Assembly (NCBI GenBank): GCA_965203805.1 | Contig: OZ241917.1 | Coordinates: 3,328,001 to 3,392,000, forward strand | Reading direction: 5' to 3' | Source: Candidatus Latescibacterota bacterium | GTDB lineage: Bacteria; Latescibacterota; UBA2968; GCA-2709665 | DNA length: 64,000 nucleotides | In this document: piece after piece, positions 7,640 through 46,919 of the stretch | How positions within the stretch are numbered: position 1 is the stretch's first letter | Layout: each line of letters opens with the position of its first letter | Notes under the pieces: model-generated | The model's database searches: none | What the model was told of the DNA's origin: nothing | What the model saw: only the letters and a program-made list of their open reading frames with translations | Program-made: the position numbers and the translations under genes

Positions 7640-9990
7640 GTAGCGAACCACCCCCAGCCCCGCAGACCTCTCCCCCCAACCCCCTCTCCCGGGGGGAGAG
7701 GGGGAGGAAAGACAGGCATCGCGTGCCGGTCATCTATAGATACTCTGATAGACGGGAATTCGCCAGCCGGCACACTTGCATGCCCAGGACATCGACCCAT
7801 CACCGTTCCCCCTTCCTCACAGGAAGGGGGATAGGGGGTAGGTCTGAGGAGGGGGGAAAAGCAGCAGTCAGCAAGCAGCGATCAGCGGTCAGCGGTCAGC
7901 GGTCAGCCTAAAGCAAGATCAAAAACAAGAGTCAAAGTCAGTTCACACGGAGACACAAAGGCACGAAGAAAAACAAAGCGGCCAGGACGAACCACCCCCC
8001 AGCCCCGCAGACCTCTCCCCCCGGCCTGCCTGCGCCGAGTTCTGCTCGGCAGGCAGGCCCCCTCTCCCGGGGGGAGAGGGGGAGACAACCAGGACTCCCT
8101 GATAGGATCACCGTTCCCCCCTTCCCCCCGGGAAGGGGGATAGGGGGTAGGTTGGTGGGGAGGAGAGGGGGGACCGGCGGTACCCGCTATCGCTTTTCGA
8201 TATGTGCTCTGATTGATTCAAGCACGCCGTCGAGATTCGTGTGGACTTGGTCATTTGTAATACGCAATACATCTAATCCTCGCGCGTTTAGGATCTCATC
8301 CCGTTTTGCGTCATACGCAGCCTGATCCTGGTGAATCTCGCCGTCGACTTCAATTACCAGGCCGACGGAATGACAATAGAAATCGACAACGAAGCCGTCG
8401 ATGATCTGCTGCCGACGAAAGTGAAGGCCATCGAGCCGATTCGCACGCAAGTGTTGCCATAGCTGTTTTTCTTCTTCTGTCATTTGTGAGCGCAGCGACT
8501 GTGCCAACTTGACCTTCTCATTGTCAACACGTTGACCCCTTACGATATATCGCCTGGATCTATTCATCAACCCCTCCGCCCAACGCAGACCTCTCCCCCC
8601 GGCCCACAACCAGCAGTCAGCCAGAAACAGAAGCAAAATCAAAAACAAGAGTCAAAGTCAGCTCACACAAAGGCACAAAGACACGAAGAAAAACAAACCA
8701 GCCAGGAGCGAACCACCCCCAGCCCCGCAGACCTCTCCCCCCGGCCTGCCTGCGCCGAGTTCTGCTCGGCAGGCAGGCCCCCTCTCCCGGGGGGAGAGGG
8801 GGAGACAACCAGGACTCCCTGATAGGATCACCGTTCCCCCCTTCCCCCCGGGAAGGGGGATAGGGGGTAGGTCTGAGGAGGGGGGAAAAGCAGCAGTCAG
8901 CAAGCAGCTTTCAGCAGTCAGCAATCAACCTAAAGCAAAATCAAAAACAAGATTCAAAGTCAGCTCACACAAAGACATTAAGAAAAACAAAGCAGCCAGG
9001 TGCGAACCACCCCCCAGCCCCGCAGACCTCTCCCCCCGGCCTGCCTGCGCCGAGTTCTGCTCGGCAGGCAGGCCCCCTCTCCCGGGGGGAGAGGGGGAGA
9101 CAACCAGGCATCGCGTGCCGGTCATCTATAGATACTCTGATAGACAGGAATTCGCCACCCGGCACACTTGCATGCCCGGTCCATCGACCCATCGCCGTTC
9201 CCCCTTCCTCACAGGAAGGGGGATAGGGGGTAGGTCTGAGGAGGGGGTGTGGGGGTGAAAACCAGGCATCACGTGCCGGTCATCTATAGATACTCTGATA
9301 GACAGGAATTCGCCAGCCGGCACACTTGCATGCCCACGACATCGACCCATCGCCGTTCCCCCTTCCTCACAGGAAGGGGGTTAGGGGGTAGGTCGGCGGG
9401 GGGAGACGCAAGACGTGAGACGGGAGATGATCACTCGCGTCAACGGGGCGACGATAAGGCCTGGCGACATGACCTCGCGGATGCGCAGACCTCTCCCCCC
9501 TGCCTGCCGAAAAACCACCGCCAGGCAGGGACCCTCTCCTGTGAGGAGAGGGTAACGAACGCCACGCGATAGGATCCGGGGGTCCCCCTTCCGTCGGGAA
9601 GGGGGTAGGCAGTAGGTTGGCGGTGGTGTGGGAGATTGCAAGCGTTGCATCGCGCAAGAAGTTCATCGCAGGTAACTTCGCGAGGTTCTATCGAACGCAC
9701 GGAGGATGGGGTGGGGCTTTTCCGCGCGAGTCCGTCCAGCAACGTCGTCCGGGAATGCCTGCGAGGGTTTCAGGGCAACGTCTCCCGGTGTGTCTCCACG
9801 GAAGCGGTTCGCGGAAAAGCAGCCCCGCGGCGTTTGAGCGGCCTGCCTGCGCCGAAGCCTGCTCGGCAGGCAGGCACGCTTCTTTTTGGTCCTTTTTCTT
9901 ACGTGGATAAGAAAAAGGACGAAGAAGAAAAAAGTAAATTAGAGATGTGAAGTTTGGGACCGCCCGGAACGCAGTTCCAACGGGTGTTTC
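7640..9990 (+). repeat. Modular REP-like cassette 1 (contains DUF559 gene 1)
   Basis: Core GTGCCGGTCATCTATAGATACTCTGA at 7723, 9115, 9273; hairpins CCCCTCTCCCGGGGGGAGAGGGG and CCCCTTCCTCACAGGAAGGGG; CAGCAGT heptamers; ~230-bp direct repeats at 7921 and 8641. Confidence 0.93.
8187..8567 (-). CDS. DUF559 / Vsr-like endonuclease, copy 1 (126 aa)
   Basis: LAQSLRSQMTEEEKQLWQHLR...FRRQQIIDGFVVDFYC...LVIEVDGEIH...YDAKRDEIL...GLDVLRITN. Visibly more AT-rich than host genes. Confidence 0.93.
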   Translation of the reverse strand: MNRSRRYIVRGQRVDNEKVKLAQSLRSQMTEEEKQLWQHLRANRLDGLHFRRQQIIDGFVVDFYCHSVGLVIEVDGEIHQDQAAYDAKRDEILNARGLDVLRITNDQVHTNLDGVLESIRAHIEKR

Positions 9991-18347: not shown

Positions 18348-18970
18348 GACAGCAATCAGCTCTCAGCAATCAGCAGTCAGCTAAGATCAAAGACGAAAAC
18401 CAGCTCACACGAAGACACGAAGACACAAAGAAAAGCAAACCAGAAACCAGCAGTCAGCAAAGAGCGAACCACACCCAGCCCCGCAGACCTCTCCCCCCGG
18501 CTCCCTCTCCCGGGGGGAGAGGGGGAGGAAAGACAGGCATCGCGTGCCGGTCATCTATAGATACTCTGATTGACAGGAAATCGCCAGCCGGCACGGTTGT
18601 ATGCCCAGTACATGCTCCCATCGCCGTTCCCCCTTCCTCACAGGAAGGGGGGTTAGGGGGTAGGTCGGTAGGGGTATGGGGGTTCGCAAGCGCTTAGTCG
18701 TTATGACGGAAAATGCTTTGAATATCGTATAGTCCAGTCATGCGTACGGTTGTGGAGTGGGGGGTTTTTCCGTGCTACTCCGTCCAGCAACATCGCTTTG
18801 GATGTGCTGGCTCGGTGACAGGGCAACCAATTTCCATTTCCGCCACTGAGGTGGTTCACGGAAAAACCGGCCCCGCGCCGAGCGGCCTGCCTGCGCCGAA
18901 GCCTGCTCGGCAGGCAGGCGCCGTTCTTTTTGGCCCTTTTTCTTGGGCGTACAAGAAAAAGGGCGTAAAA
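18348..18970 (+). repeat. Modular REP-like cassette 4
   Basis: Core at 18544, TTTTTCCGTG...CACGGAAAAA module, CCTGCCTG hairpin. Confidence 0.9.
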
Positions 18971-24323: not shown

Positions 24324-25196
24324 TTACGGGTCGCGCGGCCGGCGCCGGCAGAGATAGACCCGACGCCCACGGCCCTGCGCCAGGGCAACCGCGGCCGAAG
24401 CTTGCCGGGCCTCGCGAAAAACGCCGAAGAGCGTGGATCCGCTGCCCGAAACCGAACAGGCAACCGCGCCCCGGGCGGCCAGCGCCTCAAGGATCCGCGC
24501 CACGTCGCCGCTGACGGCTTCCACGAGGGGCAGAAAGTCGTTTTCCAGACAGGCGAACAATCGGCCCGCGCAGATCCGGCCGGATTTTTCCGCAAAGTCC
24601 AGAAATGTACCATACGCCGCCGCTTCTGTCAAGCCAATTCTCACGTTTCGATAGGCCCATGCGGTGGACACGGGGAACCCCGGATACACCAGTACATACC
24701 AGAAATCGCCCTCCCAATCCACCGGTCGGATCCGCTCTCCGCGCCCCGTCGCCACGGCCGTGCCGCCAGTGAGGAAGAACGGGACGTCGGACCCGAGTTC
24801 CGCCGCGAGCGCGGCCAGTCGCTCCGGCCCCAGGCGCGTTCCCCACAGCCGGTCCAGCGTGCGCAGGGCCGCGGCCGCGTTGGAGCTCCCGCCGCCCAGG
24901 CCCGCGCCCGTGGGAATGCGTTTGACGAGGTCCACGCGTATCCCGTGGCGCGCGCCCGTGGCGCGGCGCAGGATTTCCACGGCGCGGTACACGAGGTTGT
25001 CCGGCCCCTCGGGCACGTCCGGACGGTCGGCGCAAACGAGGGTCTCTCCGGTCGCGGCGGGCGTAAACACCAGCCGGTCGCAGAGGTCCACCGTCTGTAG
25101 CACGGAGGCGATATCGTGATAGCCGTCCGGGCGGCGGCGCAGGATTTTCAGGCCCAGATTCAGCTTTGCGGGCGCGATCTCAACAGTGCGGTACAA
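24324..25196 (-). CDS. ispE: 4-diphosphocytidyl-2-C-methyl-D-erythritol kinase
   Basis: APAKLNLGL, GYHDI, KRIPTGAGLGGGSSNAAA, LGSDVPFF, ATGRGE, SGSGSTLF. Confidence 0.96.
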   Translation of the reverse strand: MYRTVEIAPAKLNLGLKILRRRPDGYHDIASVLQTVDLCDRLVFTPAATGETLVCADRPDVPEGPDNLVYRAVEILRRATGARHGIRVDLVKRIPTGAGLGGGSSNAAAALRTLDRLWGTRLGPERLAALAAELGSDVPFFLTGGTAVATGRGERIRPVDWEGDFWYVLVYPGFPVSTAWAYRNVRIGLTEAAAYGTFLDFAEKSGRICAGRLFACLENDFLPLVEAVSGDVARILEALAARGAVACSVSGSGSTLFGVFREARQASAAVALAQGRGRRVYLCRRRPRDP

Positions 25197-25224
25197 TGGG
25201 AAAAACCCTTATCGTGGCAGGAGC

Positions 25225-26180
25225 CTTCAGCTTTCAGCAATCAGCAATCAGCAGTCAGCTTCAGTCAAGAGCGAGAATCAAAAACAAAAATCAAATTCAA
25301 CATCCACATCTCCCCAAATTCCCTGCCGTCGAAAAGCAGCTTTCAGCAGTCAGCCAGGAGCGAACCACCCCCAACCCCGCAGACCTCTCCCCCCTGCCTG
25401 CCGAAAAACCACCGCCAGGCAGGGACCCTCTCCTGTGAGGAGAGGGTAACGAACGCCTCGCGATAGGATCCCGCTTTCCCCCTTCCTTATATAGGAAGGG
25501 GGTAGGTGTCGAAAAGGGGAGACGTGAGATGAATGCCCTATGGTCTTTCTTGTCGTTACCATATCGGTAAAGAAACAGGCACAGTTAGCGTGAAAACACT
25601 GTGGTAACGTTTTCATCTACCGTCTACCGTCTTACGTCTCACCGAATTTACGCGTGCCGGTCATCTATAGATACTTCTGATTGACAGGTAATCGCCAGCC
25701 GGCACGGTTGTATGCCCAGTACATCCTCCCATCGCCGTTCCCCCTTCCTCACAGGAAGGGGGTTAGGGGGTAGGTTGCCGGTGAGGAAAGGGGAGCAAAA
25801 TGCAGCAGTCAGCCAGGAGCGAACCACCCCCAACCCCGCAGACCTCTCCCCCCTGCCTGCCGAAAAACCACCGCCAGGCAGGGACCCTCTCCTGTGAGGA
25901 AAGGGTAACGAACGCCTCGCGATAGGATCCCGCTTTCCCCCTTCCTCACAGGAAGGGGGTTAGGGGGTAGGTCTGAAAGGCGGGGAGACGGGAGATATTG
26001 TGTGCCCTGTACGGTTTCATCTCTTGCCGCAGGCATAAAGTAAGATCGAATCAGGCAAGGACTTCATCTAACGTCTCCCCTCTCCCGTCTCACCGCCTTC
26101 ATCTAACGTCTACCCTCTTACGTCTCACCGCTTTCAGGTTTTCATTCTTAATTCTTCATTCTTCATTCTTAATTCTTCCG
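25225..26180 (+). repeat. Modular REP-like cassette 7
   Basis: Two REP pairs, core at 25654, heptamer ends. Confidence 0.92.
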
Positions 26181-26193
26181 CTATCTGGCGCTC

Positions 26194-26221
26194 ATGATAC
26201 GCCTCATTAAGGTTCTGTCAA
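26194..26221 (-). promoter_or_regulatory. Putative sigma-70 promoter for the ispE operon
   Basis: Minus strand TTGACA-16 nt-TATCAT. Confidence 0.55.
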
Positions 26222-26380
26222 GCGTCAATCGGCCGCGGGAGGGCGGCGGCGCAAGGGGTATGGAGGGTCGGCGTCTGCCAAAATTGCAGGCCGTCGAACC
26301 CCCGGCCCTCTGTCCGATATTGCCGCGCGCCGTCCCTGATTCGAGGCCCTCGCATAACGGGAAAAAATCCAAGTTAGGGA

Positions 26381-26409
26381 TTGACGCCCCCGCGCAAATG
26401 TGATAAATT
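26381..26409 (+). promoter_or_regulatory. Putative sigma-70 promoter for the TPR gene
   Basis: TTGACG-17 nt-TAAATT with extended -10 TG. Confidence 0.55.
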
Positions 26410-26458
26410 GAAATGCAGTGCCGCACAGTGGCATTTACACCCATAACCCCCATAAAAT

Positions 26459-29400
26459 ATGCAACTTTCCCGCATTTTTTCCCCAACGGCTTCATGGCCG
26501 CGATTGCTCCCCGGCGCGGTCGCCGGGCTATGTATTCTGCTGGCCTGGCCGGCGCCCGCCGCGGGGCAGGCCGCCGAGGGTGAGAGCGAAAGCGTCGAGC
26601 TCGCGCAACGGCTCTTCGACAACCGGGATTATGCCAATGCGGCGCACGAGTTCCGGCGCTTTATCGCCTCCTACCCCACGAGCGCGCGGCTTCCCTCGGC
26701 GCTCTATCAACTCGGCGAGGCCCTGTTTCTGGACGAACAGTACAGCGAATCCGTCGATGCGTACGACGACTTCCTCGTGCGCTATCCCGGTCGCCTGGAA
26801 GCGGACCCGGCCCTGCGGCGAAAGGCGGAAGCCCTGGAGCGCCTCTCCGAACACGCGAGGGCCGGAGCGGCCTTCCGGGAAGCGCACGACCGGTTCCCCG
26901 CCGGCAAGCACGCCGCCGGAAACCTCCTCGCGGCGGGGATCAATTTCCACAAGGGAAAGGACCCGGACGCCGCCGGGAAAGCGTTCGGCGCGCTGGCGGA
27001 GAATTTCCCGCAATCCAGACTCGCCGCGGAAGGCAGCTACCGGTGGGGGCTCGTACTCCTGGACGCCGGACGCCCGGAAGAGGCGCTGGACAGGTTCAGA
27101 ACCATATCGGATCCTGGAATGGATTCCAAATGGACGCCGGACGCCCTGCTCGAAATCGGCAAGACCGCCCTCGGCCTGAAGGACGTGCAGGAGGCGGAGG
27201 CGGCTTTCGGCACGCTGCGCAGGGCCTATCCCGGGCATGCCGCGGCCGGCGCCTCCTACCTGGAACTGGCCGCCTGGTATGAAGGCCGGGGGAACTGGCC
27301 GAAGGCCGCTGAAATCTACGGCCTCGCCCGGGCCAATCTCCCGCAGGGCGAGGGTCGCCGGGAGGCGGTACTGGGCCTTGCCAACGCCTGGCTCGAACTG
27401 GGACGCACAGCCGAAGCGCTCGCGCTTTTCACCGAATTCATCAACGTCTATGCCGCCAGCCCTCACCTGGACCGCGCCTGGCTGGGCCTGGGGCGCGCCC
27501 ACGCCGATCTGAAACAATACCGCGAAGCCCAGAACGCGTTCCGCCGCCTCCGGGAACTCTTTCCGGAATCGGAGGCCGGCATCCGGGCGCACGGGGAGAT
27601 GGGCGACGCCTGGCGGGCCGCGGGCGCGCCGCGCAGGGCATTGAGGGCATACCGGGCCTACGCCGGGCGGGCGGAAGCGCCCGGCGCTATCGAATCGGCC
27701 CGGCTGCGGATCGCGCGCACGTACGAACTGGACCTCGGGTGGCGCGATCTGGCGCTGGCGGTCTACCGGGACCTGGCGGAATCGGCCGGGGCCGCCGTTG
27801 CCGGCGAGGCGCAGTTCGGCATCGCCCGGATTCTGGATCGAACCGGTCGGGCGGACCGGGCCATTCGTGAATACAGGGCCTACCTGCAGAAATACGACAG
27901 CCGCGCCGCCGAGGCGGAAAACCGCATCCGCTACCTTCGGGAGTTCGGCCGCGAGGCCCCGGGCGTGCCGCCGGCGGACCTGGCCGCGCTGCTCTCGAGT
28001 TTCCCGGCAATCGCAGACGACCCGCAGGCCCGGTTCGTACTCGGAAAGTTCCTTCACGGCCGGCGGCAATACGCTCAGGCGGCCGAAACACTCGCCGCGG
28101 CGCTGTCCGGGGAACCCCCGCCGCCGTTTGCCGCCGAGGCCGCCTGGCTACTGGGCCGGAGCGCCCTGAAGGCGGCGAGGAAAGCGGAACTGGACGGCAG
28201 GACGGAACCGGCATCGTCCTGGCGCGAGAGGGGCCTGGCGGCGCTGGGCGAGGTCGAGGCCGGGCATCCCGAAAGCGAGTACGCGGACGACGCCGCCCTG
28301 TTGCGGATCGAAACGGAAACCCGCCTGCCTGCCGATGCAGGCGAGGCAGGGGTCCCGGCGCAGACCGGCGAAGCCGATACGGACACGGCGAGGGCGAGGC
28401 GGCGACTCGCGGCGTACGGCGAATTCATGAAGACCTACCCGGGATCCGACCGGCTGGACCGGGCGCTGCTGGGGATGGCCGACGCGATGCGCGCGCTCAG
28501 CCGGTTCGAACCCGCGTGGATCGACACCGCCCTGACAACCTACAGGGAAATCAGCGACACGTATCCGAAAAGCCCGGCGGCGGAACGGGCGACCTACGGC
28601 ATCGGACTGTGCCAGGCCCTGAAGAAAGACCACGCGGCCGCCGAGGAAACGCTGCGGGACTTCCTCTTCGCGTATCCGCAAAGCGACCTGGAGAGCCACG
28701 CCAGGTACCAGCTCGGCCGCATCCTCCTGGAACGGGGGTTCCCGAGGAGCGCGGCGGACGACCTGGCCGAGCTTCTCGCGGGGCCGGCGTCGCTCGAACT
28801 GGCGCGGTCCGCGCGCAACCTGCTGGCCGAGAGCTACTTCAGGGCGGATAACTACCGGCGCGCCATTGAGATCGACACCGAACTGCTTTCTGCCGGGCCC
28901 GACGAGCCCGCGCTTCGACGGCTCGCGCGGTCCTACGAGGCGAACGGACAGGCGGCCGAAGCCGTCGAAACCTGCCAGACCCTGCTGAACGCGTATCCGA
29001 ACGCGGCCGGCGCCGACAGCTTCGCGTACGCCCGGGCGCGGCTTCTGGCGGACCTGGACCGGGAGTCCGAAGCGGTCGCGGCCTTCAAGGCGTTTCCCGG
29101 ACAATATCCCGAAAGCCCGCTGAAGGCCAACGCGGGCAGGGCCGTGTCAACCCTCCTGTTCGAAGCCGGAGAATACCGGAACGCGCTCGCGGCCATTGCG
29201 CACATCCCCGCGGACGCGAGGGACGCGCCGGTTGCCGGGAGCGAAGTCCTCAGCCTGTTCCGGCTGAAACGCGTGCAGGAGGCGAAGAAAGCCGCGGGCA
29301 GGTTCAAGAAAACCTATCCGGACAGCCGGGAGTGGCTCGGCAGGTTCAGGAACGAGGAGGGCCTGTATTATCTGAACGCCGGCAACTTCAAGAAAGCCCG

Positions 29401-36424: not shown

Positions 36425-38160
36425 AGCTTTCAGCAGTCAGCTAAAAGCAAAAGCGCCCTCACCCCCAACCCCGCAGACCTCTCCCCCCGGCCCCCTCTCC
36501 CGGGGGGAGAGGGGGAGAAAAGACAGGCATCGCGGGCCGGTCATCTATAGATACTCTGATTGACAGGAAATCGCCAGCCGGCACATTTGCATGCCCGGTC
36601 CATCGACCCATCGCCGTTCCCCCTTCCTCACAGGAAGGGGGATAGGGGGTAGGTCCCGAAAAGGGTAGACGGGAGACGGGAGATGAGGGATGACAACCTG
36701 CTTCAACGGGGCGACGATAAGGCCTGGCGACATGACCTCGCGGATGCGCAGACCTATCCCCCTGCCTGCCGAAAAATCACCGCCAGGCAGGGACCCTTTC
36801 CTATAAGGAAAGGGGGGAGACAACCAGGAGAACGCCTCTACAGACGTCGGCGCGCCAACACCGCGAATCCTCACCATTGTCCTTCACGACATACCTATCA
36901 CGCGTCCGGTGGTGGGGATGGGGTTTTTCCGTGCAAGTCCGTCCGGGAACGCCTGCAACGGTTTCAGGGCAACGTCTCCCGTTGTCTCCACTGAAGCGGT
37001 TCACGGAAAAAATAAAAATTGATGGGAGAGGTTAAGTTTCTGTCCTACCGGAACGCAGGTCCAACGGGTGTCTGTCCGCCGCCAGGCGCCCTTTGGGGAT
37101 GCTATGGATAATCCCCACGAGGACCATCCCGTTTTCATTCTTCATTCTTCATTCTTCATTCCGCCTTCATCTACCGTCTACCCTCTTACGTCTAACCGCT
37201 TTTACGCAGACCTCTCCCCCCGGCCCCCTCTCCCGGGGGGAGAGGGGGAGAGAAGCAGGCATCGCGGGCCGGTCATCTATAGACACTCTGATTGACAGGA
37301 AATCGCCACCCGGCACATCTGCATGCCCGGTCCATCGACCCGTCGCCGTTCCCCCTTCCTCGCAGGAAGGGGGTTAGGGGGTAGGTCCCGAAAAGGGTAG
37401 ACGGGAGATGAGGGATGACAACCTGCTTCAACGGGGCGACGATAAGGCCTGGCGACATGACCTCGCGGATGCGCAGACCTATCCCCCTGCCTGCCGAAAA
37501 ACCACCGCCAGGCAGGGACCCTTTCCTATAAGGAAAGGGGGGAGACAACCAGGAGAACGCCTCTACAGACGTCGGCGCGCCAACACCGCGAATCCTCACC
37601 ATTGTCCTTCACGACATACCTATCACGCGTCCGGTGGTGGGGATGGGGTTTTTCCGTGCAAGTCCGTCCGGGAACGCCTGCAACGGTTTCAGGGCAACGT
37701 CTCCCGTTGTCTCCACTGAAGCGGTTCACGGAAAAAATAAAAATTGATGGGAGAGGTTAAGTTTCTGTCCCCCAGGAGATTAGTTCCAACGGGTGTCTGT
37801 CCGCCGCCAGGCGCCCTTTGGGGATGCTATGGATAATTCCCACGAGGACCATCCCGTTTTCATTCTTCATTCTTCCTTTTTCCTTCTTCCTTCCTCCCTC
37901 TTACGTCTCACCGCTTTCAGGTTTTCATTCTTAATTCTTCATTCTTCATTTTTCATTCCGCCTTCCTCCTCCTTCCCTCTCCCGTCTCCCCTATTTTCTT
38001 GCCCCGTGTTGTTTCATATCTTGCCAGAGGCATAAGGGAAGTACCAATCGGGCAAGGACATCATCTACCGTCTACCCTCTTACGTCTCACCGGTTTTAGG
38101 TTTTCATTCTTAATTCTTCATTCTTAATTCTTAATTATTCTTTCTTCCCGTCTCACCGGT
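36425..38160 (+). repeat. Modular REP-like cassette 9: ~680-bp block duplicated (period ~730 bp)
   Basis: About 36472-37150 matches about 37205-37875; cores at 36534 and 37266. Confidence 0.93.
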
Positions 38161-45999: not shown

Positions 46000-46745
46000 A
46001 AACACTTCGCCGGTGGCTATTGCAAAACATGTCATTCTGAGCGCAACGAAGAATCTCCCGTCTTCTCTATTGTCCTGTACACAGAAACGCGGTAAACACA
46101 TTGGCGCGGACACATCGCCGGCATCACGCGATGCGGGCAGCACAGCCGTGCAGGCGCAAACGTGCCGCCTCTCAGGTATCGACACGTAAAAGCCGCGAGG
46201 TGATGGTCCCATGCCGCAGTAGATCCTTCGTCGGCCTGCCTGCCGATGAACCGCTGGCAGGCACAGCGGCCTCCTCTGGATGACAGGTTGGGCGAGCGGC
46301 AGACAGGAATGTCTGCCCCACCCTCACACCGACTTCCTCAGCATGGCAGGACTGGCGTAGACTTGACCGGAACACTTCGCTGAACGCTATCGCAAAGCAT
46401 GTCATTCTGAGCGCAGCGAAGAATCTCCCGTCTTCTCTATTGTCCTGTACACAGAAACGCGGCAAACACATTGGCGCGGACACATCGCCGGCATCACGCG
46501 ATGCGGGCAGCACAGCCGTGCAGGCGCAAACGTGCCGCCTCTCAGGTATCGACACGTAAAAGCCGCGAGGTGATGGTCCCATGCCGCAGTAGATCCTTCG
46601 TCGGCCTGCCTGCCGATGAACCGCTGGCAGGCACAGCGGCCTCCTCTGGATGACAGGTTGGGCGAAGGCAGACAGGAATGTCTGCCTGCCTGCGCCTGCC
46701 AGTCACGCTTTGGCAGGCAGGCCCCACCCTCACACCGGCTTCTGC
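46000..46745 (+). repeat. Second palindromic repeat family, 2 tandem units of 370 bp
   Basis: GTCATTCTGAGCGCA.CGAAGAATCT at 46031 and 46401, closing with AGATCCTTCG...GGATGACA, then a GGCAGACAGGAATGTCTGCC hairpin. Confidence 0.92.
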
Positions 46746-46919
46746 AGAGTTCAGCCGCACGTATCAGGGGCGCGTCTCGATGCCCGCTCCCGATCAATCA
46801 TCACGATGTTTATGTTGACAAGCACGATGGATTATGTGAATTTTGAGACCGTCCATAACGTGGGCGGGAGTCGGGGCGGCGCGGAAGTCGTCCCGACCGC
46901 CGTTAATGAGGAAAATTCA

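Follow-up and report, generated by a model that had tools for sequence, protein, structure and literature searches.

Short hairpins as candidate non-autonomous mobile DNA in a Latescibacterota genome and in other phyla

Within a 64,000-nt stretch of DNA from a Candidatus Latescibacterota bacterium (the window; G000:C1:3328001-3392000, where G000 labels the source genome, a single contig of 5,865,457 bp with 59% G + C), short hairpins with the arms CCTGCCTG and CAGGCAGG are found in some copies of unrelated repeats and are missing from other copies of the same repeats. Do such hairpins move as units in their own right, or are they old parts of their host repeats that some copies have lost; and, if they move, what moves them? 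An earlier note, made from the sequence of the window alone, proposed one of the smallest conceivable mobile units, inserting at GCC sites inside other repeats. The comparisons described here suggest that each hairpin is very probably an exact unit that has been copied to new sites. A more complete explanation, to which we assign a probability of about one half, is that the hairpins are non-autonomous elements of 21-39 nt, gained as exact units, mobilized in trans by an enzyme of the HUH/Y1 type, spread horizontally and selected for lengths in multiples of three. Annotation of G000 consists of Pfam matches on selected frames, and bins of metagenome-assembled genomes may be incomplete or mixed.

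Filled and empty sites of the hairpin

Two pairs of sites in the window raised the question, and both are present in the sequence as the earlier note described them. At site 1, the filled form cccccGGCC[TGCCTGCGCCGAGTTCTGCTCGGCAGGCAGGCC]ccctctcc carries a 33-nt unit at 8027-8059, while a paralogue at approximately 36483-36500 reads ccccccggccccctctcc; when four host-repeat copies are aligned, a clean gap of 33 nt is left. At site 2, a 37-nt unit (46687-46723) has gtctgcc on its left and ccaccc on its right, and the empty paralogue gtctgccccaccc lies at 46310-46324. The site 2 pair are the two tandem copies of a duplication of approximately 360 bp, which otherwise have 2-3 differences over about 190 nt. 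This duplication (window 46150-46870) is located upstream of hisG, and the 37-nt hairpin is the main difference between its copies.

The pattern CCTGCCTG N5-30 CAGGCAGG matched 20 times in the window, compared with 0.00 in 100 shuffles. These matches include 33-mers with another loop at 9842 and 18886 and 14 copies of the variant CCGAAAAACCACCG, all of which had been listed as related hairpins; the further relative placed at 46235 is there too, in degenerate form (Table 1). When the search was extended to the whole genome, as the note had suggested, a broadened pattern (fifth arm base T or A) gave 230 matches in G000 and 2 in the reversed genome, and a slightly wider gap gave 227 non-overlapping hairpins. 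Clustering by flank similarity placed these in 107 contexts, of which 78 are single. One exact 33-mer occurs in 10 different contexts, twelve exact sequences occur in at least three contexts each, and 16 of the 107 contexts contain more than one hairpin sequence.

The architecture of the family is an outer stem of 8 bp, CCTG(C/T)CTG / CAG(G/A)CAGG, usually a bulge of 2-3 nt, an inner stem of 3-6 bp and a loop of 3-5 nt, extended to 9 nt in an A-rich 31-mer. As single-stranded DNA, the site 1 hairpin has a folding energy of -17.8 kcal/mol (z -5.2; none of 200 shuffles equals it), and other hairpins tested have z values from -2.1 to -5.7. Covariation of the three variable inner pairs was seen across 40 different 33-mers of other genomes (13 cells with both sides changed, a value reached by none of 500 shuffles), the remaining ten pairs having been set by the search pattern.

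Empty homologous sites are common. At least one empty paralogous site was identified for 52 of 207 loci in G000, often with flanks identical at 90 of 90 bases, and by our reading these loci would represent roughly two dozen distinct sites. Orthologous sites in other genomes give the same picture. For example, one hairpin lies 7 nt after the stop codon of RAYT-1, one of two genes for REP-associated tyrosine transposases (RAYTs; REP, repetitive extragenic palindrome) in G000; the site is empty in a sister genome, G001, with a RAYT that is 91% identical, and in four further orthologues. A 27-nt copy in the loop of a hairpin upstream of the second gene, RAYT-2, has empty counterparts in G008 and G011. 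Where the host is an insertion sequence (IS) family, empty copies are the commonest, with ratios of empty to filled such as 7:1, 19:4 and 18:8. The host at site 2 is a REP, GGCAGACAGGAATGTCTGCC-CCACC, for which empty copies also predominate in G000 (Table 1) and in which at least five different hairpins occur at one position.

Of the 78 copies of the site 1 host repeat in G000, about 31 are empty, 5 hold the 33-mer and about 41 hold a 31-mer. The spacers of the empty copies are CCCAACC (11), CCCGGCC (9), CCCAGCC (3), CCCTGCC (2) and others, mostly lacking GGCC, and all five copies filled with the 33-mer have the CCCGGCC form. The probable polarity of site 1 rests on the whole host repeat, with its 31 or so empties and its five copies filled with the 33-mer, and not on the original pair alone. 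Filled and empty forms are also found in another phylum: in Thiorhodospira sibirica, three copies of a host repeat are empty (...GCCCTAAAGGACGGGG...) and five have the hairpin, in four of the five as an exact 33-nt unit between CCCTA and AAGG. The hairpin sits here in the loop of a host hairpin, at a junction (A^A) without any shared base. A separate observation concerns one IS with a DUF772 transposase, the same site of which holds hairpins of different lengths, a 33-mer and a 30-mer, in two copies (G000:C1:1518773 and 2577275) and is empty in seven; this could reflect either repeated insertion there or conversion between hairpins.

Junctions, targets and lengths

In the 52 loci with filled and empty forms, the inserts are of 33 nt (25 loci), 27 nt (12), 30 nt (9), 21 nt (5) and 22 nt (1), and sizes of 21-39 nt overall bear out the suggestion that these would be among the smallest mobile units. 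The junction is ambiguous by 3 nt in 24 loci, 2 nt in 13, 1 nt in 9, none in 5 and 4 nt in 1, and the ambiguous bases are always part of GGCC. The earlier note had both inserts ending by repeating (G)GCC, which is correct at sites 1 and 2; over all 52 loci the repeat varies from 0 to 4 nt. An insert that starts with CC and ends with GG will show a repeated (G)GCC if it lands between G and C. The simplest reading is therefore that the exact palindrome CCTG...CAGG would be inserted bluntly, mostly at G^C and also at C^C, G^T, A^C and A^A, without a target duplication, as the palindrome ends account for the 0-4 nt of ambiguity. This variety of junctions does not sustain GCC as the target site, so that the earlier interpretation appears to hold for a self-contained unit gained at many unrelated places and not for the site that it named. 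Blunt insertion of an exact palindrome would exclude the staggered cuts of DDE transposases and a fixed 2-nt crossover core.

Across phyla, base bias is confined to the position immediately 3' of the insert. Among the 113 loci listed from other genomes, which have different flanks and were taken in the same orientation, base +1 is C in 76 and T in 21, while base -1 is T in just 8. Targets are often unpaired parts of other hairpins, namely the loops of RAYT-1-type and RAYT-2-type hairpins and the loop in T. sibirica, and nested forms of 40-51 nt arise from inserts in the bulge or loop of other members of the family (loci h22, h39 and h200). Flanks that pair with each other over at least 6 nt were found at 11.6% of 112 loci listed across phyla, compared with 3.6% for mismatched flank pairs. 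In the REP type associated with R4, one of the RAYT groups described below, the folds are ambiguous as to the orientation of inserts by bulge side.

Many of the hairpins lie in potential coding sequence. In G000, 103 of the 227 are in frames that stay open for 50 codons or more to either side, many such frames being spurious in G + C-rich DNA. Several host genes were confirmed by Pfam as transposases. An IS1380-like frame of 478 aa (PF13701, E 1.3e-134, profile positions 21-433 of 435) contains a 33-nt insert with six empty paralogues and a 21-nt insert with five; a DUF772 transposase frame of 559 aa contains a 30-nt insert (seven empty paralogues) and a 45-nt compound; and a Mu-type transposase identified by Pfam has a 27-nt insert. 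Hairpin-carrying IS copies have multiplied in this genome. The frame that joins RAYT-2 to DUF1156 is likewise unbroken across a 27-nt insert. In genes other than those of IS (DnaE, HlyD-like, OEP and HAD), the hairpin precedes the first Pfam domain and possibly lies beyond the gene.

The lengths are predominantly multiples of three. Among the loci listed from other phyla, 105 of 113 are of 27, 30, 33, 36 or 39 nt (binomial p 2e-35, against an expectation of 37.5% if lengths were evenly spread over the 16 allowed), and the same holds for 32 of 33 phage loci. In G000, the fraction is 64 of 107 contexts, compared with one third expected (p 2e-8), and nested or slipped compounds account for many of the exceptions. 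Of 86 distinct hairpins, 10 contain a stop triplet on one strand or the other, compared with 23% after shuffling of the variable part. Folding gives no reason for such lengths, since a 5-bp stem with a tetraloop would be equally stable yet make 32 nt. Most of 14 loci in five genomes of other phyla are intergenic or at gene ends, and the rule is therefore not explained by where each copy lies at present. It may instead reflect selection on lineages of the element, as only stop-free inserts in multiples of three would survive in coding DNA.

Distribution, candidate enzymes and alternative explanations

Copy number varies from 0 to 151 among 41 relatives of G000, with a reversed-pattern control of 0 in all of them. 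Within the phylum, 35 of 125 genomes with completeness of at least 90% have a match, and nearly all belong to one family, f1 (17 of 20 genomes); outside it, genomes have 0-2 copies, save for one with 13. Identical hairpin subtypes are common to different genera of f1. With a pattern of 22 fixed bases (CCTGCCTGCGCC N5-20 GGCAGGCAGG), a scan that took a single genome for each species identified at least 120 loci, where by our own arithmetic about one chance match is expected in 596 Gb at even base composition. The matches listed come from Verrucomicrobiota, Planctomycetota, Lentisphaerae, Kiritimatiellae, Omnitrophota, several families of Bacteroidota, Fibrobacteres, Calditrichaceae, WOR-3, Methylomirabilota, Acidobacteria, groups of Desulfobacterota type, Chloroflexaceae, Spirochaeta, Rhodobiaceae, Thiorhodospira, several Patescibacteria and others, and they include one 30-mer that is identical in at least 11 loci of different groups, some with A + T-rich flanks. 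Ten genomes of other groups searched in full have 44, 54, 22, 17, 3, 20, 7, 4, 4 and 3 copies, with 0 for the reversed patterns. In a viral collection, the hairpin was found in 37 stretches; its neighbors there include genes for portal, capsid, terminase, sheath and Mom-like proteins, which identify true phages, and a primase gene. No nuclease or recombinase recurs beside the hairpin in these 37 stretches.

These observations suggest how the hairpins might move. The CCTGCCTG...CAGGCAGG hairpins would be non-autonomous mobile DNA. The comparisons show them to be gained as exact units without target duplication, with a preference for two kinds of target: other hairpins, at their foot or where they are unpaired, and genes that tolerate insertion, among them those of IS transposases, in which stop-free inserts with lengths in multiples of three leave the frame intact. 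Spread between phyla would be horizontal, with phages as possible carriers. Single-strand cutting and joining would be carried out in trans by an enzyme of the HUH/Y1 type, such as a RAYT or an IS200-like TnpA. We infer this enzyme from the strand-asymmetric bias at the target, the lack of target duplication, the preference for single-stranded loops and the bulged shape of the hairpin; it is a candidate whose chances we place somewhat short of even. Such enzymes are available. The two Y1-family genes of G000 match NF047646 (cut-off 80), RAYT-1 (201 aa) at 104 bits and RAYT-2, which is in frame inside a DUF1156-type open reading frame, at 87.7 bits, and Y1-family matches were present in 10 of 10 genomes searched (nine from other phyla and G024, the last with fragments alone). 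Among f1 genomes, those with RAYT-1 or a further type, R3, have 8-151 hairpins and the others 0-11, a grouping that was made post hoc and among kin.

Several results weigh against this explanation, and above all against the enzyme. No Y1 or RAYT gene in G000, its relatives or five genomes of other phyla is flanked by CCTGCCTG hairpins; at 20 Y1 loci in the five genomes of other phyla the hairpin adjoins none, with one copy about 1.4 kb away. The single hairpin that abuts the RAYT-1 stop in G000 is absent, as described above, from the orthologues. The RAYTs of G000 and its relatives instead have repeats of their own: CGAGGGCAGGATGCCCTCG hairpins accompany RAYT-1 orthologues (5 of 5), GCGGGCGTCCCGCCCGC accompanies RAYT-2, R3 of the relatives has a GTAGCGCAAAC...GTTTGCG repeat, and R4 has the GGCAGACAGGAATGTCTGCC REP, the empty form of which flanks R4-type RAYTs in G002, G005 and G006. 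The Y1 family is found in 65 of the 125 genomes of the phylum, and its presence therefore does not discriminate. No Y1 subtype is common to all hairpin-rich genomes: G015 has 130 copies without RAYT-1 or RAYT-2, and RAYT-2-like genes occur in genomes of another family, f4, with 0-1 hairpins. The association of hairpins with RAYT-1 or R3 is, given its post hoc nature, only a lead. Among the 113 loci listed, there is no conserved target of 4-5 nt of the IS200/IS605 type and no word at -4 to -1 or +1 to +4. Finally, mobility is deduced from comparison of sequences and no excision or insertion was seen directly, as the public data are short-read contigs that break in the repeats, with no listed piece across the stretch.

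Other sources of an enzyme were considered. No match to PF04986 (IS91-type Y2) was found in G000, a weak test in that control genomes gave none either. Genes bounded by the motif, for which the earlier note had recommended a search, gave no candidate: among 60 hairpin-bounded intervals listed in G000, there is no IS with these ends, and two intervals that were opened contain an acetyltransferase-like reading frame and a truncated IS fragment, neither of which is a candidate. In T. sibirica, the host repeat was considered as the REP of the RAYT in that genome and rejected, since the flanks of this RAYT carry a different repeat.

Several alternatives have to be set against mobility driven by a Y1-type enzyme. 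The hairpins might be mobile by another route, through transfer of the nuclease-plus-ligase or topoisomerase type by a conserved host protein, or through the joining in of a reverse-transcribed RNA hairpin. Such a route would be in keeping with Y1 genes that lack flanking hairpins and with the identical 30-mer of different groups, and a common host factor would explain why the same arms recur in many phyla, including Patescibacteria with genomes of 1.1 Mb. We nevertheless think it unlikely: no search pointed to an enzyme of this kind, the junctions lack marks of reverse transcription such as poly-A or traces of a primer or template, and a universal factor would hardly suffice in view of how patchily the hairpins are distributed within one phylum. 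It is rather more improbable that the hairpin has no transposition of its own and is a module useful to the host (an RNA or DNA structure or a protein site) that travels as a passenger of repeats, IS and phages, aided by short-patch conversion. Passenger behavior does occur, in that about 47 copies of the 31-nt variant were multiplied along with one host repeat and hairpins have multiplied with the IS that carry them; the contexts with more than one hairpin sequence, the IS site with either the 33-mer or the 30-mer and the identical subtypes kept between genera also suit this idea. However, it cannot make 107 unrelated contexts or place one exact 33-mer in 10 of them, it leaves clean inserts at single-copy orthologous sites unexplained, and no T-run of the intrinsic-terminator type was observed behind the hairpin at the loci inspected in G000 and other genomes.

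The least probable alternative, to which we give very little credence, is that the empty sites are derived, with hairpins as old parts of the host repeats that were lost by slippage between flanking (G)GCC; the earlier note had named slippage, with no new target contexts, as what would undo its proposal. Palindromes are prone to deletion, 38 of the 52 loci have 2-4 nt of homology at the junction, and around site 1 filled copies exceed the nearest empties by 14 to 2. Against these points, homology is just 0-1 nt in 14 of the 52 loci and nil in T. sibirica, orthologues in outgroups are empty, and the host repeat of site 1 has some 31 empties with at least four spacer variants, most without GGCC. 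IS families are mostly empty as well, and their intact, Pfam-length transposase is the empty form. The junctions, outgroups and empties, along with the many contexts, largely refute loss by slippage. The case for a mobile unit draws on one 33-mer in 10 contexts, empty orthologues in sister genomes and filled and empty pairs in another phylum. On a bolder reading, the hairpins may be described as pan-bacterial, horizontally spreading transposons of 27-39 nt, each no more than one bulged hairpin with fixed arms, with blunt insertion in single-stranded loops, evolved stop-poor lengths in multiples of three that allow survival inside genes, and phages among the carriers between phyla. The enzyme, encoded elsewhere, would be either a Y1/HUH protein used promiscuously or a factor so far unconnected with transposition. 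This is a tentative description that we consider to have only about one chance in three.

Some features of the RAYT genes themselves merit description. RAYT-1 (within G000:C1:4532012-4535614) has arrays of a different repeat, CGAGGGCA(G)GGATGCCCTCG, on both sides; this repeat is GTAG-tagged in G000, with 23 exact copies of two variants, and appears to be the REP family of RAYT-1 itself. RAYT-2 (within G000:C1:4546977-4549700) is a RAYT-type Y1 domain inside an open reading frame of the DUF1156 type, methylase-like and associated with anti-phage functions, with small hairpins of its own at its bounds. The same arrangement, in frames of 1203-1441 aa, is found in G008, G011 (twice) and G016 and in the f4 genomes G108, G111 and G112. 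Two relatives with genomes of about 8 Mb, G017 and G038, have at least 32 copies each of an IS200-type Y1 transposase and no CCTGCCTG hairpins. Two R4-type REPs in inverted orientation have inner halves identical to the arms CCTGTCTGCC / GGCAGACAGG, and the hairpin family may descend from the center of such a doublet.

Relation to known systems and further features of the window

The closest parallels are with REPs and REPINs and their RAYTs. As in those systems, the hairpins are bulged, imperfect palindromes of 20-40 nt in tens to hundreds of copies (here 227, z -2.1 to -5.7), clustered with other repeats, and G000 has two RAYT genes. According to the sections of PMC6006769 that describe them, REPs have a 5' GT[AG]G foot, border the tnpA-REP for which they are specific and can lie in frame within genes, as the hairpins do here; two subclasses of Y1 lack REPs. 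That source and abstracts on REPINs associate each RAYT with its own, lineage-specific REP. The hairpins described here differ in that the 113 loci listed have no GT[AG]G (or CGTC) foot and only the C/T bias at +1, in that no RAYT is flanked by them as it would be in a REPtron, and in that identical arms are found in phages as well as in many phyla, with a patchy distribution within a phylum, in place of lineage-specific and mostly vertical descent. Unlike REPINs, the inserts are single hairpins (21-37 nt) and not inverted doublets.

The two ends of an IS200/IS605 element are unlike, and insertion is 3' of a fixed word of 4-5 nt, while here the element consists of one hairpin, bias is limited to a single flanking base and there is no fixed word. 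The TnpB partner of IS605 was rejected as a lead, since G000 has no match to PF07282 and controls matched in 8, and no classical IS200 TnpA was found in G000. The likeness lies in insertion without target duplication, with 0-4 nt of ambiguity here and 0 nt in T. sibirica; for IS608 and ISDra2, the absence of target duplication, bulged hairpins in single-stranded DNA and strand-specific insertion are described in part in PMC6006769.

The palindromic elements of Rickettsia are of about 100-150 bp and restricted to one lineage, and differ in this from units of 21-39 nt found across phyla. They are described in part in PMC3733652 as palindromic repeats in frame in genes that stay open, and the in-frame inserts in the PF13701, DUF772, Mu-type and RAYT-2/DUF1156 frames described above are similar in this respect. 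Miniature inverted-repeat transposable elements (MITEs; Correia/NEMIS, ERIC, RUP and Nezha) resemble the hairpins as small non-autonomous repeats with inverted ends. In contrast to MITEs, for which 70-300 bp and target-site duplications from DDE transposases are given in part in PMC3733652, the hairpins have no duplication and a third of the size or less, and the 60 intervals listed include no parent IS. Literature searches with words of the hairpin sequence, in a coverage without subscription journals and supplements, gave only papers on unrelated human, mouse, C. elegans and Pseudomonas topics, and the words are not in the passage of PMC3733652 that deals with such repeats.

REP-type repeats are held to be the lineage-bound partners of one flanking RAYT. 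The hairpin family departs from this in four ways: a single hairpin of about 30 nt is the whole unit, there is no tie to a flanking transposase, it is common to distant phyla and phages, and its lengths are quantized in codons. If an enzyme could be assigned, this would define the minimal substrate of a single-strand transposition system and explain an origin of short peptide insertions in bacterial proteins. The question is testable at the bench in T. sibirica (ATCC 700588), which is in culture and has 44 near-identical copies, clean filled and empty sites and one RAYT-1/2-like gene.

The members of the family in the window are collected in Table 1.

Table 1. Hairpins and vacant host sites in the window (positions are those of the window).
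Feature	Position	Strand	Context or evidence
33-nt hairpin CCTGCCTG-CG-CCGAG-TTCTG-CTCGG-CAGGCAGG (site 1)	8025..8057 (equally writable 8027-8059)	+	in CCCGG^CC spacer of host repeat
33-mer identical to site 1, in paralogous host-repeat copy	8745..8777	+	pattern search and alignment
33-mer identical to site 1, in third host-repeat copy	9040..9072	+	pattern search and alignment
Empty host-repeat copy ctctccccccGG^CCccctctcccggggggagaggggg, vacant site between 36490 and 36491	36470..36515	+	alignment
33-mer with loop AGCCT, at gagcGG^Cacgc of a different repeat family	9842..9874	+	1 empty paralogue, 13 filled
33-mer of the same subtype as at 9842, in paralogous repeat	18886..18918	+	2 empty paralogues
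37-nt hairpin at foot of GGCAGACAGGAATGTCTGCC-CCACC REP (tgtctg^cc; site 2)	46685..46721	+	filled/empty comparison
Empty GGCAGACAGGAATGTCTGCC-CCACC REP, neighboring tandem duplicate	46298..46322	+	genome-wide 30 empty, 9 filled
Degenerate relative, 3' arm GGCAGGCAC	46233..46262, duplicated at 46593-46622	+	sequence
31-nt variant with A-rich loop (CCGAAAAACCACCGC)	9499..9529	+	one host repeat family, 47 flank-related copies
Further copies of the 31-nt A-rich variant	14418, 17324, 21241, 21852, 22959, 25393, 25852, 32192, 32404, 32624, 36761, 37486, 61496	+	each 31 nt

The 31-nt variant with the A-rich loop is concentrated in one region of 225 kb (window 9499-61526; genome 3.245-3.47 Mb), which contains 28 of its 29 exact copies. 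Its orientation flips at about 3.33 and 3.46 Mb, where GC skew is unchanged, and does not follow the strand of the genes. The replication strand was considered as the cause of the flip near 3.33 Mb and rejected, as the extremes of GC skew are at about 0.8 and 4.4 Mb with no local change.

The repeat-rich character of the window might also recall an integron with attC sites, a reading that was set aside because the genes are housekeeping ones (H+-PPase, L25, IspE, HisG/D, UvrC and a Xer-type gene). At the gathering score, a tRNA is the sole match to Rfam in the window. At window 25196-26459, the gap between orthologous genes is filled by about 710 bp of stacked repeats in G000, compared with about 30 bp in G001 (C15, approximately 395.5 kb), and at an equivalent host-repeat position in this region the 33-mer is present in G001 and the 31-mer in G000. 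Polypyrimidine/polypurine hairpins (CCCTCTCC...GGAGAGGG and CCCCCTTCC...GGAAGGGGG) make up composite intergenic repeats at window 7900-8200 and 25380-26000. Hairpins that resemble them are hosts of the CCTGCCTG element in loci of Verrucomicrobiota and Methylomirabilota, and they may constitute a second hairpin family that is common to several phyla.

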